Program-made: the position numbers and the translations under genes
Notes under the pieces: generated by a model
The model's database searches: none
Seen by the model: the letters and a program-made list of their open reading frames with translations, nothing else
What the model was told of the DNA's origin: nothing
Source: Escherichia coli
GTDB taxonomy: Bacteria; Pseudomonadota; Gammaproteobacteria; Enterobacterales; Enterobacteriaceae
Assembly: GCF_030384885.1 (NCBI RefSeq)
Contig: NZ_CP128613.1
DNA: 64,000 nucleotides
Strand: one strand, 5' to 3'
Part shown: positions 9,321 through 19,910 of the stretch, in pieces
How the letters are laid out: the number at the start of each line of letters is the position of its first letter
How positions within the stretch are numbered: the stretch's first letter is position 1

Positions 9321-9620
9321 AAAAATCCCTTAATTATGAGTCAATAAAGCATGATTCCATTCCAGAGAGGCTGGGCAGGACTTGATAAATATTGATAATA
9401 TAAATATATGCAAATAATAAAATTATTTTAGATTAGAGCAAAAAACACATTACATGTCTATACGACATATAATAAAAAGGTTACAACCATCTGAAATTTA
9501 AAGATTTGTTCTTATTCTCAAAAATATAAAATCATAAATTAAAAATATAAATTCACCCCATTAGATTCATTAAATAAATACTTATTATATTTATCTATAT
9601 AACGTCATAGTAATCTATTA
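9321..9620 (-). promoter_or_regulatory. AT-rich upstream/promoter region of the accessory fimbrial operon
   Basis: ~300 bp of very AT-rich, curved-looking DNA (repeated AAAAATATAAA motifs) immediately upstream of the pilin gene; no ORF of 60 aa or more. Confidence 0.5.
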
Positions 9621-9643
9621 CGCTCTCCGCATCAGCGGAGAGC
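9621..9643 (-). terminator. Hairpin downstream of mrcB (putative terminator)
   Basis: Inverted repeat CGCTCTCCGC-ATCA-GCGGAGAGC about 10 bp after the mrcB stop; no strong U-tract, so it may be a factor-dependent or REP-like structure. Confidence 0.5.
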
Positions 9644-9653
9644 TATTACGATA

Positions 9654-12188
9654 TTAATTACTACCAAACATATCCTTGATCCAACCTGCTACGCCGTCAC
9701 TGTCTTTCTGCTCTTGCTGATCAGGTTGCTGTTGCGGCTGTTGCTGCGGCTGAGAAGACTGATCAAACGGATTGCCTGACGGTTGCTGCTGCATCTCACT
9801 CTGCTGGCACAGCGATTGCGGATCGCTGGTCCAGACCGGTAAGACACGCATGCCACCGCTGCAGACAAAGTTGCCGTCGTAGTCCACGCCCATATCAGCA
9901 ATGTCTTCTGGCGGAACAAGATTCAGCGGTGTTGGCGTCTGGTTAGCCAGATAACGCTGATAAATCGACATTGCCCCACTGGCACCATACAGTTTGGTCG
10001 GCTGGTTGTTATCACGGCCTACCCAGGTGATGGTCACCGTGCTGCCGTCAATGCCCGCAAACCAGGTATCCACGTTGTTGTTGGTAGTCCCGGTTTTGCC
10101 CGCCAGATGCAGGTTCGGGTATTTCGCCCCAAGCTGACGACCCGTACCGCGTTGTACCACCTGCTGCATGGTCCATAGTGTCAGATACGCCGCCTGCGCC
10201 GGAACCGCGCGTTCCGCCTGCGGGAAGCTCTGATACAGCACCTTGCCATCTTCCGCAATTACCGAACGCAGCGCAGAAAGTGGTGCACGGTTACCGCCGC
10301 TGGCGATGGTCTGGAAAGCCTGCGCCACTTCGATTGGCGTTAAGTTCAACGCCCCCAGCAGCATTGCCGGAACCGGATGCAGCTGATCTTTCGGTACGCC
10401 CAGTTTAATCCAGGTATCCGTAACCGCAGGCAGCCCCAGCGCCATCCCCAGATTTACCGTCGGCACGTTCATCGAACGAGTCAACGCATCCACCAGCATC
10501 ACTCTGCCACTTTCGCTATAACGACGATCATCGTTCTGCGGTGACCAGACCTGACCGTTCGGCTGACGCAGCGCGATTGGCGCATCGGCAATCCACGTGT
10601 TCAGGCGATAGATTCTCGGCTGGCTTAAGGCCGTCAGATAAGTCGCTGGTTTTGCAAGGGAACCAATCGAACGACGCGCCTGCATCGCACGGTTGTAACC
10701 TGCAAACTGCGGCTCAGAACCACCAACCATCGCGCGAACTTCACCGCTAAAGCGGTCGACAACCACGATTGCCGTTTCCAGATCGCTCAGCTTTCGCTGT
10801 TTCTTCAGCGCCGGAATACCCTCCACGGCGGCTTTTTCTGCCGCGTCCTGGGCCACCGAGTCAAAGGTAGTGAAGATCTTCACGCCGGAGAGATCTTTCA
10901 CTTTATCGCCCAGTTTCGCCTGTAGCTCCTGACGCACCAGTTGCATAAAGGCTGGCTGTGGAGAGATTACCCCACCACGCGGCTGAACCCCCAGCGGACG
11001 CGCGCTGAGCATTTCATACAGTTCGCCGTCGATAATCTGTTGCTGTTGCAGCAGACGCAGTACCAGATTACGTCGCTCCAGCGCCAGTTTCGGGTTACGC
11101 CACGGATTGTAGATGGACGCCCCTTTCACCATACCCACCAACAGCGCCTGCTGGTCGAGGCTCAATTCTTCTACCGGGCGACCAAAGTAATACAAGCTCG
11201 CCAGCGGGAAGCCGCGGATTTCGTTGTCGCCGCTCTGACCGAGATACACCTCGTTCATATACAGCTCAAGAATACGGTCTTTGCTGTAACGCGCGTCCAT
11301 GATCAGCGCCATGTAGGCTTCGTTCGCTTTACGCCAGTAAGAACGCTCGCTGGAGAGGAACAGGTTTTTCACCAGCTGTTGCGTCAGCGTACTCGCCCCC
11401 TGCACCGTGCGTCCGGCGGTCAGGTTTGCCAACACCGCACGTCCGATGGAGTAGAGACTGATCCCATCATGCTCGTAAAAATGACGGTCTTCTGTTGCCA
11501 GCAAAGTATCCACCAGCAGATCCGGGAAACCACTGCGCGGCACAAACAGACGTTGCTCACCGTTTGGCGAAGAGATCATGGTGATCAGACGCGGATCAAG
11601 ACGGAAGAAACCAAACTGACGGTTGTTCTCCATATTGACGATCGTCGCCAGATGATCGCCATCAAAGGTCAGACGCGCACGCACCTGTCCTTCTTTGCTG
11701 TCCGGGAAATCAAACGGACGACGGATCATCTCAATGCTGTTGGCCTGCACGGTAAATTCGCCAGGGCGCGTCATTTTCGACACCTGACGATACTGGGTCG
11801 CCTCCAGCAGCTTCACCATCTCGTTTTTGCTGATGGTCATGTCTGGCTCAAGGTTGACCATTCGGCCATAAACAGCCGCAGGCAATTGCCAAACTTTGCC
11901 ATCAATACGGCTACGAATTTTTTGATCGAGATAAACACCGTAAATGGCGATCAGCACGGCAAAAACGATAGCCAGTTTTAGCAGCAGCCATAGCCAGCCG
12001 CGTTTGCCACGAGGCTTACGCCCTTTGCCTTTGCCCTTACCTTTGCGCGGCATCGGTTCTTCATCCTCATAGTCATCATAATCGTCGTAATCATCGTCAT
12101 CTTCGTAACGACGACGGCTTACCTTTTGTTTGACCGGACGCGTCGGTTTCCCTTTGCGTCCAATTGGCTCGCGGTCATTCCCGGCCAT
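9654..12188 (-). CDS. mrcB: Penicillin-binding protein 1B (bifunctional glycosyltransferase/transpeptidase)
   Basis: 844 aa from [13 protein letters not shown]; acidic [15 protein letters not shown] and KGKGKGKG N-terminal tracts, transpeptidase SxxK (SLAKP) and KTG motifs, Gln-rich C-tail. Confidence 0.95.
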
Positions 12189-12281
12189 GCTTTTTCTCCG
12201 CAATATTCAGGCGCAAAAGCCCGATTTTCTGTTCTTCTGTAACAAGACAGAAGAAGATATCTCTCAAATTTACTTTGGTCT

Positions 12282-14711
12282 TCATGAATACTTTTTCGTC
12301 CGTCGCGTCGGTGCGGTATTTGCCGGATCATCCGGCCAGACGTGTTTGGGATAACGCCCTTTCATCTCTTTTTGCACCTCGCGATACGCTCCTTTCCAGA
12401 AGGCGCTCAAATCTCGTGTGATTTGCAGCGGCCTTTGGGCAGGAGAAAGCAACTCCAGCACCAGCGGCACGCGCCCCTGGGCGATCGTCGGATTGGTGGC
12501 CTCGCCAAACATCTCCTGCATTCTCACCGCCAGCGCGGGCGGGTTATCTTCATGGTAACGAATGGCGATCCGGCTTCCCGTCGGCACAGTGTAATGCGCA
12601 GGCAATTCACTATCCAGACGTTGCTGCATCCCCCAATCAAGTAATCCGCGTAGCGCCTGATAAATATCGAGTGATTTCAGGCCGCGTAGCGAATGTACGC
12701 CTGTCATATGCGGCAGGAGCCACGTTTCCAGCGTCGCCAACAAACTTTCATCATCAACCGCTGGCCAGTCATATTCCGGCAACCACTTTGCGGCGCATAA
12801 CAAACGCAAGCGTAGCTGTTCCGCTTCCGCCGTCCAGTTGAGCACGCTTAAACCTTTATCACGAATGCCGTTAAGCATCGCCTGATGCAACTCGTCTTCC
12901 GAGGGTTTCGCCAGCGGCTGCACTTTCACCGTCAAATGACCGATTTGCAGCCGACGCCACGCTTTCAGCGTACCTTGCGCGTCATCCCACTCCACAGTGT
13001 CAGACTGCTGTACCAACTGCGGACAGCGTTGTACTAATTCATCGATATCGACCGGTAGCGCCAGTAAAATCCGCGCATCCGGCGAGGCGCTGCCCTGCAA
13101 TAATAACGGTGCGATCAACCATTCGTGGCGGCTGAGCGCATCATCGGCATCGAGCATTGCCCCCATGCCGTTTGCCAGTTGATAGCGCCCCTCTTGCCCA
13201 CGGCGGCGAGCGATGCGATCGGCAAACGCTCCGGCAAGTAACGGTGCGATAAGCGAACTGTCTGCCTCACCGCCGCGTACGTTTAAGCGCTTTAACAGTT
13301 GCTGGCTACGTTGCTGCCAGGCAGGTTGATTGCGCGAAAACGCCACGCCCAGATCGATATTGCCCATCCGTGGTGGCTCTTCGAGAATAGCGGCAATTTT
13401 TGCAGCGGTAGCAGCTTCGTCGTCGCTCTTTGCGCTCACCAGCATTGCCGCTAAACGCGGATCGTTACCCAGCGTCGCCATTTTCTGCCCTTTCGTGCTT
13501 AGCCGTTCACCGTCCATCGCCCCCAGCATCCGCAACAGGCGTTTCGCGGCCTGTAAATTCACGGCTGGCGGTTGATCCAGCCAGCTCATCTGCGTCGGAT
13601 CGCTGCATCCCCATTGCAGTAATTCCATCAGCAAACCGGAGAGATCGCTTTGTAATATTTCTGGTTCACTTTGCGCGGAGGCGCGTTCTGCTTGTTCTTT
13701 GGCGATTAAATGTAAACAGATCCCCGGCTCCAGACGTCCGGCACGCCCGGCGCGTTGCGTCATTGATGCCTGGCTAATGCGTTGGGTAATCAGCCGCGTT
13801 AGCCCCGTGCGCGGATCAAAGCGCGCCACACGTTCCTGAGCACAATCCACCACCAGACGAATACCTTCGATGGTTAAACTGGTTTCAGCAATATTGGTTG
13901 CCAGCACCACTTTGCGCATCCCTTCTGGTGCCGGAAGGATCGCTTTTCGCTGATCGTTCAGCGACAACGCGCCATACAGCGGGCAGAGCAACACATCACT
14001 ACCGATGCGCGAAGCCAGTTGTTCCTGAACGCGCTGAATTTCTCCGACACCAGGTAAAAATAACAGTAATGAGCCGCTTTCCTGATGCAGCAATTCGGCG
14101 GTGGCAACCGCCACGGCTTCATCAAAACGCTGATGAGCGAGCAGCGGTAAATATCGGCGTTCAACCGGAAATGAGCGCCCTTCTGAGATGACGACGGGCG
14201 CTTCTGGCAGCATCTGCTGCAAGCGGTCATTGTCCAGCGTAGCCGACATAATCAGTAGTTTAAGGTCATCACGCAGACCTTGTTGCACATCGAGTAACAG
14301 CGCCAACGCCAGATCCGCCTGCAAGCTGCGCTCATGAAACTCATCGAGGATCACCAATCCAACGCCGCTCAGTTCAGGGTCACGCTGGATCATGCGCGTC
14401 AACACGCCTTCGGTAACTACTTCCAGGCGAGTATTTGCCCCGACACAGTTTTGCGCGCGCATCCGGTAGCCTACCGTATCACCTGTTTTTTCGTTAAGCA
14501 GTTCCGCCAGTCGTTGCGCAACGTTACGCGCCGCCAGGCGACGCGGCTCCAGCAGGATAATTTTTCCGTTAATGCCGGGATGCGCCAGCAGTTGCAGCGG
14601 CAGCCAGGTTGATTTCCCGGCCCCGGTCGGCGCACTTAATAACACCTGCGGTGCACCATCGAGGGCAGCAAGTAACTCAGGTAAGACGGCGGCAACGGGC
14701 AACGACGACAC
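12282..14711 (-). CDS. hrpB: ATP-dependent RNA helicase HrpB (DEAH-box)
   Basis: Walker A PTGAGKST, DEFH box; GTG at 14711 with a GGAG 8 nt upstream gives 809 aa; the alternative ATG at 14756 has no Shine-Dalgarno. Confidence 0.9.
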   Translation of the reverse strand: MSSLPVAAVLPELLAALDGAPQVLLSAPTGAGKSTWLPLQLLAHPGINGKIILLEPRRLAARNVAQRLAELLNEKTGDTVGYRMRAQNCVGANTRLEVVTEGVLTRMIQRDPELSGVGLVILDEFHERSLQADLALALLLDVQQGLRDDLKLLIMSATLDNDRLQQMLPEAPVVISEGRSFPVERRYLPLLAHQRFDEAVAVATAELLHQESGSLLLFLPGVGEIQRVQEQLASRIGSDVLLCPLYGALSLNDQRKAILPAPEGMRKVVLATNIAETSLTIEGIRLVVDCAQERVARFDPRTGLTRLITQRISQASMTQRAGRAGRLEPGICLHLIAKEQAERASAQSEPEILQSDLSGLLMELLQWGCSDPTQMSWLDQPPAVNLQAAKRLLRMLGAMDGERLSTKGQKMATLGNDPRLAAMLVSAKSDDEAATAAKIAAILEEPPRMGNIDLGVAFSRNQPAWQQRSQQLLKRLNVRGGEADSSLIAPLLAGAFADRIARRRGQEGRYQLANGMGAMLDADDALSRHEWLIAPLLLQGSASPDARILLALPVDIDELVQRCPQLVQQSDTVEWDDAQGTLKAWRRLQIGHLTVKVQPLAKPSEDELHQAMLNGIRDKGLSVLNWTAEAEQLRLRLLCAAKWLPEYDWPAVDDESLLATLETWLLPHMTGVHSLRGLKSLDIYQALRGLLDWGMQQRLDSELPAHYTVPTGSRIAIRYHEDNPPALAVRMQEMFGEATNPTIAQGRVPLVLELLSPAQRPLQITRDLSAFWKGAYREVQKEMKGRYPKHVWPDDPANTAPTRRTKKYS

Positions 14712-14784
14712 AAAACGCTCCAGAGGGTTAACATTCTTCGCGCCACATTGTAGCATCGCGGTAATGCATAACCGAGTACCTCAC

Positions 14785-19563: not shown

Positions 19564-19910
19564 GGCAATAGTTTTGCAAATATAAATAAATTCCGAAAAT
19601 AGCTTTCACGCAATTACAATAATCCCTCCTCTAAGTTATAACCGTAATAATATAATATTCACCCCACTCAACAGCCCCACCCATATACACCATTATCATC
19701 ACATTAGATATTTAGTTTTACTTAAAAATGAATTAAGTGGATATTTAATTTTAAATATGCACAATATCCCCCCTAATGATGAACAGATGTTACATTCGGT
19801 AAATCCAAGCATCCATCATTAACAAACCATTCACCTTTTCTTTATCGAGACTTCCTGCTTGAGGAGGTCTGATTAAAGTTAAACTCATGGAATATGATTC
19901 AAGGATTTTT
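19564..19910 (+). promoter_or_regulatory. AT-rich promoter/regulatory region of the yad fimbrial operon
   Basis: ~350 bp AT-rich non-coding region upstream of yadN; no GATC pairs seen. Confidence 0.5.

Follow-up and report, generated by a model that had tools for sequence, protein, structure and literature searches.

The AT-rich leader of the fimbrial operon ushABCD in Escherichia coli and its likeness to silenced fimbrial control regions

In Escherichia coli O157:H7, H-NS silences the lpf1 control region and Ler, the H-NS antagonist of the LEE, lifts the silencing (Torres et al. 2007, as cited in PMC3891560). In CFT073, H-NS represses the yad fimbrial operon more than 100-fold, and an hns mutant of EC958 likewise shows raised yad transcripts (PMC13245861). 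A sporadic fimbrial type, 'ECSF_0165', was listed by Wurpel et al. 2013 (PMC3559732). The name ushABCD comes from Stubenrauch et al. 2017 (PMC5717340), who reported the operon from ST131 and from enteropathogenic E. coli (EPEC) E2348/69 and put its usher in the gamma* clade beside YraJ; according to the same report, no lineage has both the yra and the ush operon (PMC5717340).

Here we analyse positions 9321–9620 of a 64,000-nucleotide stretch of E. coli DNA (contig NZ_CP128613.1), the whole of which is called the window below. These 300 bp are the leader of the pilin gene ushA. The operon and its names, ECSF_0165 and ushABCD, were already known; what is new is a deeply conserved ATGGA at −40 from the start codon.

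The ushABCD locus and its distribution

The stretch under study lies in the 333 bp spacer between mrcB and ushA (9321–9653), and all genes around it are on the minus strand. On the 5′ side of the leader, and reading toward it, is the core gene mrcB, which encodes PBP1b (9654..12203, placed by its open reading frame and the RefSeq annotation), with hrpB upstream of that (12282–14756). Downstream follow ushA, encoding a major pilin of 188 aa (8754..9320; Pfam Fimbrial, 3.8e-20), ushB for a periplasmic chaperone (7992..8708; PapD_N and PapD_C domains), ushC for an outer-membrane usher (5476..7950; Usher, PapC_N and PapC_C domains) and ushD for a candidate two-domain tip adhesin (4444..5454; C-terminal Fimbrial domain). 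Past ushD lie fhuA, fhuC and fhuD.

Reading frames and domains thus give the order pilin, chaperone, usher, adhesin between mrcB and fhuA, which is that of the ushABCD or ECSF_0165 type. The same placement recurs in SE15, where the usher is ECSF_0165 and the stretch examined stops within it, and in E2348/69, where the operon is complete (E2348C_0153–0156). The window's ushA shares 82–84% of its nucleotides with the SE15 and E2348/69 genes, and the leader can be aligned throughout. Judged by gene order, locus and orthology, the operon is ushABCD (ECSF_0165 type, gamma* clade). Its proteins reach no curated NCBIfam cut-off, the closest models being Lpf and Fim, and ushC is 39% identical to YraJ of K-12. 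The N-terminal 190 aa of UshD matched no solved structure by sequence. An identity with Ucl- or F17-like pili was ruled out on this ground, because the lectin domains of UclD and F17G would be among the solved structures and the receptor domain of the adhesin matched none.

A BLAST comparison of the K-12 mrcB–fhuA spacer with the window showed that segment 4309..9645 (39% G+C) is missing in K-12, which has 133 bp there instead. The last 255 bp of mrcB are 95% identical to K-12, and homology stops at 9646. The region is 100% identical to that of E. coli strain 2013C-4282. A plasmid origin was considered and rejected, the sole match being an 834-kb E. coli record.

Both classical EPEC and the pandemic ST131 lineage have the operon, and it is present in about 10% of complete E. 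coli genomes, its leader having been found in 574 of 5426. The ST131/SE15-type allele accounts for about 569 genomes, is practically monomorphic and is 76% identical to the window leader; the E2348/DCE7-type allele occurs in a few genomes, and the window's own allele in only 2 of the 5426. Between alleles, the distal leader shows 69–77% identity with about 30 gapped columns, the proximal 79 nt show 82–90%, and ushA shows 82–88%. The leader has 25–27% G+C in every allele, its AT-richness being upheld despite 23–31% divergence and many indels.

Other genera encode UshA homologues with 57–64% identity in the same four-gene operon, immediately 3′ of mrcB. A TonB-dependent receptor gene occupies the fhuA position after the operon in Citrobacter freundii, Salmonella enterica and Enterobacter hormaechei; mrcB also lies directly 5′ of the operon in C. 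werkmanii, Pluralibacter, another Salmonella and further Enterobacteriaceae contigs, and in E. albertii the operon adjoins mrcB. The leaders in other genera are 339–454 bp long with 25–37% G+C, and none of the 11 ush loci from these genera has a regulator gene. The sequence-only reading of the window, made from its letters and reading frames, had spoken of an island. That term did not survive the comparison: the operon is also sited between mrcB and fhuA in Salmonella, Citrobacter and Enterobacter and 3′ of mrcB in Pluralibacter, and because it is syntenic across genera 'island' is misleading. The picture of an E. coli-specific island is thereby corrected to that of a locus common to enterobacterial genera. 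On the evidence of synteny, ush is an old presence/absence polymorphism, and, the locus being common to these genera, its patchy presence in E. coli would reflect loss or exchange through flanking homology.

Composition and anatomy of the leader

The leader had been described as strongly AT-rich, and it is: 9321–9620 has 22.7% G+C (77% A+T), the lowest of any 300 bp in the 64 kb, and the whole spacer 9321–9653 has 25.8%, against 50.0% for the window. Intervals of 300 bp that are equally AT-rich make up 0.04% of all; the next lowest, at 29.7% G+C, are the yadN leader and the pdhR–aroP spacer. TpA steps reach 15 per 100 nt in 9321–9620 as against 5 in the window, a threefold excess. The reiterated motif also noted there is real in kind, a repeat of AAAAATATAAA type, but it has two copies only, 14 of 15 positions being identical. 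The copies of AAAAATATAAA(A/T)TCA lie at 9520–9534 and 9541–9555, 21 bp apart, each with TATATT on the coding strand, and the ST131-type and E. albertii alleles likewise have two copies of TATATTTT, similarly spaced.

Apart from one 27-aa chance frame and the tail of a 57-aa frame that runs antisense to the pilin gene, the spacer holds no open reading frame of at least 20 aa. An Rfam scan of the segment carrying the operon and leader returned nothing at E = 0.6 or better. Scans of the leader for Fur, Lrp, IHF, CRP, Fis and OxyR sites gave none above dinucleotide shuffles; one weak Lrp-like match is at chance level.

The leader had further been called curved and typical of H-NS-bound fimbrial promoters. 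Curvature was assessed with the Bolshoy–Trifonov wedge model, phased A-tracts bending correctly as a check. The predicted end-to-end ratio of 0.88 is that of the leader's own dinucleotide shuffles (0.86 ± 0.08), which gives the description no support, and the local minimum in the leader reaches only the 5th percentile of the window. Sites resembling the high-affinity H-NS motif TCGATAAATT number three, with 2 mismatches each, against 1.6 in shuffles (P = 0.2), and are not enriched over shuffled sequence. H-NS motif-like sites stand at 9588–9597 and 9495–9504. Two inverted, H-NS-like GATAAAT sites were considered as a conserved bridging pair; the upstream one is conserved, and the pair was rejected because two alleles lack the downstream one.

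Followed as it would be transcribed (minus strand throughout), the leader begins just past the mrcB stop codon with a hairpin, GCUCUCCGC-UGAU-GCGGAGAGC (9622..9643), whose perfect 9-bp stem folds at −24.1 kcal/mol (z = −3.95); E. albertii and every E. coli allele preserve it. A terminator scan found no U tract after it. In K-12, the mapped 3′ end of mrcB lies directly past an analogous, non-homologous hairpin that also lacks a U tract, with 97% efficiency (PMC10687069, supplement). Because the K-12 hairpin at the same place marks the mrcB 3′ end, the hairpin at 9622..9643 likely ends the mrcB mRNA as well and insulates ushA from read-through.

The distal, fast-evolving AT-rich part follows (9421..9614), presumed to be the platform for H-NS-type silencing. 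It holds the best σ70-like site, candidate promoter P1 (TTTATA-17-TATATT, 9523..9551, −10 at 9528–9523), which has the top score of 12.5 and from which a 5′ UTR of about 195 nt would follow. The ST131-type allele has a P1-like site in the corresponding position (score 12.2), and P1 is not above chance for DNA this rich in A+T (2 sites against 3.2 expected). Candidate promoter P2 (TAGACA-17-TCTAAT, with TG at −15/−14, 9432..9460) falls within the invariant blocks GTATAGACA and TTTTTTGCTCTAATCTAAAA. It is the only σ70-like site found at the same alignment columns in 8 of 8 alleles, is likewise not above chance and is weak because its −10 element is poor, with C at −11. By eye, no σ54, σE or σ28 promoter fits around ATGGA.

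Allele alignment delimits a conserved proximal block, TCAATATTTATCAAG-TCCTGCCCAGCCTCTCTGGAATGGAATCATG (9350..9395). Within it lies ATGGA at −40 from the ushA start (9356..9360), readable as an ANGGA-type motif or as the start of an 8-codon upstream frame (MESCFIDS). The Shine–Dalgarno sequence AAGGGA (9326..9331) stands 6 nt 5′ of the ATG (9320–9318), and TAAGG is found there in 10 of 13 lineages. The functional order would accordingly run from a hairpin ending mrcB through some 200 bp of about 75% A+T bearing one or more promoters to about 75 nt with ATGGA and a strong ribosome-binding site (RBS).

Three of these observations speak against silencing: no curvature is predicted, H-NS motifs are not enriched, and no promoter-like site rises above chance.

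Silencing, switching, read-through and RNA-level control

Information on expression comes from the EPEC orthologue of ushA, E2348C_0153, the pilin gene adjoining mrcB (NC_011601 173313–173879 in the GFF of PMC8550237). Bingle et al. 2014 found it activated by Ler, 4-fold in mid-log and 5-fold in late-log phase (PMC3891560). The same paper gives a 6-fold activation of leuO by Ler, and because leuO is itself activated, the effect on E2348C_0153 is possibly indirect. Under virulence-activating conditions, mean normalised counts were 285 for E2348C_0153, 434 for mrcB, 14.6 for the usher gene and 7.7 for the adhesin gene (Pearl Mizrahi et al. 2021, PMC8550237). Under non-activating conditions, the pilin count was 26.5, about 10-fold below the inducing value, and loss of hfq without induction raised it 13-fold (log2 fold change +3.76, padj 2e-5; PMC8550237, Table S2). 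These effects, and that of RyhB described below, belong to the EPEC allele, and the distal leader of the window allele is 69–77% identical to the studied alleles. The earlier statement that the operon is normally silenced is too strong as it stands, the EPEC pilin transcript reaching about two-thirds of the mrcB level under inducing conditions. Pilin mRNA that is so far from silent when induced is also an observation against silencing in its own right.

Together, the EPEC and yad data point to H-NS-type silencing with trans-acting relief as the best-supported mechanism, and to a promoter that is responsive rather than dead. We put at roughly 65% the probability that the best explanation of the ushABCD leader is an AT-rich region under H-NS-type silencing, relieved in trans and containing no DNA switch. 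H-NS-type nucleoid proteins would coat the leader and hold the promoter low, and a trans-acting anti-silencer or condition would lift the silencing and raise ushA expression. In LEE-positive strains, the anti-silencer would be Ler, acting directly or via LeuO; otherwise, temperature or other global factors may provide relief. A second, post-transcriptional layer, formed by Hfq with small RNAs and perhaps by CsrA, may tune pilin translation. We infer the binding of H-NS, the position of the promoter and the transfer of this mechanism to the window's rare allele.

A different account would make the leader a phase-variable switch, whether an invertible element of fim type served by a distant recombinase, a Dam/Lrp methylation switch or a slipped-strand repeat. 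E. coli does have recombinases that work at a distance, and the leader offers some material for such a reading. The earlier statement that it has no 9-bp inverted repeats was wrong to the letter: there are three perfect 9-mer pairs, 106–194 bp apart (for example 9384–9392 with 9587–9595), and there is one imperfect 20-bp inverted pair, 161 bp apart. What stands is that their number is that of chance (shuffle mean 1.0, P = 0.13) and that the arms are not conserved, the downstream GATAAAT arm being missing from the E2348/DCE7 and E. albertii alleles. The leader is collinear and in one piece in 571 of the 574 genomes, one of the exceptions being an IS1 insertion, and no inverted form occurs in these assembled genomes. 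Rare tandem indels of 5 bp and 6 bp in two ST131-type genomes might suggest slippage, but both are singletons, and 566 of the 570 ST131-type leaders agree in length and in identity to the query. As the sequence-only reading had it, GATC is lacking: none lies between 9065 and 9678, and none is present in seven leaders representing E. coli and E. albertii alleles, including every E. coli allele. It was also right that no regulator or recombinase gene is adjacent, because the neighbours within 9 kb on either side are only mrcB and hrpB on one flank and the pilin, chaperone, usher and adhesin genes with fhuACD on the other; no frame resembling papI or papB was seen among the spacer frames, and no recombinase frame at the locus. 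The leader thus shows none of the features that define the fim, pap and slipped-strand switches, in agreement with the claim that it holds no recognisable switch. A phase-variable switch is already largely refuted, and we regard it as highly improbable. Improbable too, if less extremely so, is that ushA has no promoter of weight of its own and is transcribed by read-through from mrcB, the AT-rich DNA being a neutral spacer left from acquisition. The two genes share an orientation, the hairpin after mrcB carries no U tract, and their EPEC counts are similar in size under inducing conditions. Yet the K-12 hairpin that equally lacks a U tract stops 97% of mrcB transcripts, and the 10-fold and 13-fold shifts of EPEC ushA with conditions and with hfq are accompanied by log2 fold changes of only −0.15 and +0.45 for mrcB. 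Moreover, Ler activates ushA while mrcB is absent from the excerpts of the tables of Ler-activated genes (PMC3891560), and AT-richness, spacer length and the proximal motifs are upheld across genera.

Control acting mainly after transcription is a rather doubtful alternative to silencing, and one ground for it is ATGGA. The leaders of the 13 lineages compared cannot be aligned save for two short elements, ATGGA and the TAAGG at the RBS. ATGGA occurs at −34 to −43 in 12 of the 13 lineages and in five genera (Escherichia, Salmonella, Citrobacter, Enterobacter and Pluralibacter), its flanks being unalignable, and is the top 5-mer; in shuffles its mean is 0.86 and its maximum 5 of 13, and any 5-mer at all reaches at most 9 of 13. 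Going by this conservation, ATGGA would be the only element of the leader that goes beyond expectation. The CsrA consensus is ANGGA, and CsrA-controlled 5′ leaders include those of the glgC and pgaA type as well as the fim/pef hierarchy in Salmonella. Both AUGGA and the RBS fit this consensus. The layout of such leaders, with at least two ANGGA 10–63 nt apart and one of them on the RBS, is found here with GGA at −38 and −8, and a comparable pair spaced 22–32 nt occurs in 12 of 13 lineages. A CsrA dimer bound to AUGGA and to the RBS (AAGGGA or AAGGA) would then block ribosome binding. Alternatively, the AUG would open a frame of 3–14 codons that ends at or over the RBS or the start codon and sets pilin translation. 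In most lineages such frames stop no more than 14 nt short of the main ATG; three lineages show an overlap with it, as TAATG or ATGA, and in one more the frame reads a few nucleotides past it.

Several findings weigh on the other side. For most lineages, folding predicts a paired GGA and not one exposed in a hairpin loop: in folds of 48-nt segments, it is at least partly paired in the lowest-energy structure of 12 of 14 sequences, tending to pair with an upstream UCC. Structure near ATGGA is not significant (mean z = −0.56, combined P = 0.07) and gives no covariation that could be scored, and GGA in an RBS is to be expected of any gene. As for the upstream frame, it lacks both its own RBS and a conserved peptide, and AT-rich sequence yields frames of this length by chance. 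An RNA-level layer would also supplement transcriptional silencing, not replace it. A small two-tier hairpin can be drawn here, with inner stems that differ between genera; it is not significant by energy or by pairing probability. A conserved 5′ UTR hairpin was also sought and rejected: RNAalifold on the E. coli alleles gave invariant pairs only, and across 12 lineages MAFFT misaligned the arms and zero pairs were predicted.

Because the EPEC pilin transcript level depends strongly on Hfq, control at the RNA level does exist in that allele. In RIL-seq data, RyhB chimeras map to nucleotides 14–95 of the E2348C_0153 coding sequence (PMC8550237). Folding of whole-length duplexes with RyhB gave meaninglessly long pairings and was abandoned in favour of a seed search, which located an 8-nt seed, AUACUGGA, in the EPEC allele that pairs with RyhB nucleotides 56–63; 7 of its 8 nt are kept in the window allele, and it is broken in the ST131 allele. 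That AUGGA, some 30 nt 5′ of the RBS, is an ancient functional element of RNA-level control, as half of a dual CsrA site or as the start of an upstream frame, is a tentative suggestion drawn from its conservation, and we lean against it. If true, it would tie expression of the ush fimbria to the Csr, Hfq and RyhB networks and not to transcription alone.

Comparison with described fimbrial control regions

The fim switch, fimS, resembles the ush leader as an AT-rich promoter region of about 300 bp before a gamma-type pilin gene. Unlike fimS, however, ush has no conserved 9-bp inverted repeats, no adjacent recombinase gene of fimB/fimE type and, among the 574 genomes, no inverted form. Like CsrA-controlled leaders, ush has a pair of ANGGA motifs separated by about 30 nt, with one in the RBS; its upstream GGA, in contrast to theirs, is not predicted to lie in a hairpin loop.

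The yraHIJK operon of K-12, the sister of ush in the gamma* clade, has the same four-gene order, and yraH is preceded by a 400-bp leader of 27% G+C that also lacks GATC and a regulator gene. It differs in its locus (agaI–rsmI), in protein identities of 36–39% for chaperone and usher with none detectable for the adhesin, and in its leader sequence, the best match shared by the two leaders being 28 of 38 positions; by eye, no ATGGA was seen near −40 in the yraH leader. The yadN leader, 10 kb from ush in the same window (19564–19886), is about 320 bp long and AT-rich (lowest G+C 30–31%), and the operon is neither phase-variable nor equipped with a dedicated regulator. Most E. coli carry yad, a core operon of seven genes, in contrast to the four genes of ush in about 10% of genomes, and the hns-mutant data belong to yad only.

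The lpf1 operon is, like ush, of the gamma chaperone–usher type, and of the NCBIfam models LpfC gives the ush usher its highest score. In each case an AT-rich leader precedes an operon that encodes no regulator of its own, and each responds to Ler, for ush in the EPEC orthologue (PMC3891560). They occupy different chromosomal sites, the ush proteins fall below every curated Lpf cut-off, and H-NS binding and direct Ler binding have been shown for lpf, not for ush.

Collectively, these comparisons make the feature an ordinary representative of a familiar class of fimbrial control region, and the current understanding of fimbrial regulation is unchanged by it. Having no phase switch, the ush control region resembles the leaders of lpf and yad that are silenced in the H-NS/Ler manner, and by the features compared here it would be closest in mechanism to the lpf1, yadN and yraH leaders.

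The leader and its flanks

The AT-rich leader that separates mrcB from the pilin gene ushA is nearly invariant among ST131-type strains, in which about 570 leaders are identical apart from two singletons. These are a unique 5-bp tandem duplication (TGTGG) in strain R14 and a 6-bp deletion within an AAAAAC run in strain 98889 (L002 compared with L005 in the leader alignment A1, columns 170-205). The allele in the window is rare and divergent, and its divergent tract seemingly continues into mrcB: over the last 300 bp of that gene (9654-9953), identity to the E. coli alleles used for comparison is only 94.5-95.7%, against 99% between ST131-type and E2348-type strains.

Insertion sequences were found inside the ush leader in two cases, one in E. 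coli and one in Citrobacter. The E. coli case is an IS1A copy in the ST131-type strain 23779 (L006, 6229-6926); in Citrobacter freundii (L014, 5546-5725) it is a fragment of an ISL3 transposase. At the mrcB end, the hairpin is bracketed on both sides by the 8-bp direct repeat CGTAATAG (minus strand, 9615-9650), and the arrangement of 8-bp direct repeats with a 20-bp palindrome between them resembles a target duplication.

A second fimbrial leader lies 10 kb away. At 29.7% G+C, the folK-yadN spacer (19564-19886) in front of the Yad fimbrial operon ranks second in AT-richness within the window, which thus contains two fimbrial leaders without a regulator, those of ush and yadN.

Locus and possible decay of the ush operon across genera

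In Salmonella, Citrobacter, Enterobacter, Pluralibacter and E. albertii, too, the ush operon (4309-9645 in the window) comes immediately after mrcB (loci L014-L016 and L019-L024), and a fhuA-like receptor gene follows it in those loci for which the flank was covered. In the list of Wurpel et al. 2013 (PMC3559732) only six fimbrial types are common to Escherichia and Salmonella; the ush type is absent from those six. In EPEC E2348/69 the gene for the chaperone, ushB, carries a frameshift (L012, 8926-9643), and no gene was called at the expected usher position in C. freundii (L014, 7333-9879), which together suggest that the operon decays frequently.

Candidate post-transcriptional and read-through control

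The pentamer ATGGA, at position -40 relative to the start of ushA (minus strand, 9356-9360), is present in 12 of 13 lineages spanning five genera, across which the leader sequence around it cannot be aligned. The motif may act as a CsrA-type site or else open an upstream reading frame. At the other end of the operon, no intrinsic terminator was predicted in the ushD-fhuA interval (4230-4443) and the region homologous to the K-12 fhuA promoter and Fur box starts at 4308, making transcriptional read-through from ush into fhuA conceivable.

In EPEC, RIL-seq linked the iron-starvation sRNA RyhB to the first 95 nt of ushA (PMC8550237). The 8-nt RyhB seed AUACUGGA is whole in the EPEC allele (L012, 8390-8397), keeps 7 nt in that of the window (9237-9244, ushA codons 26-28) and is broken in the ST131 allele. 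The ush operon is followed by the Fur-regulated fhuA.
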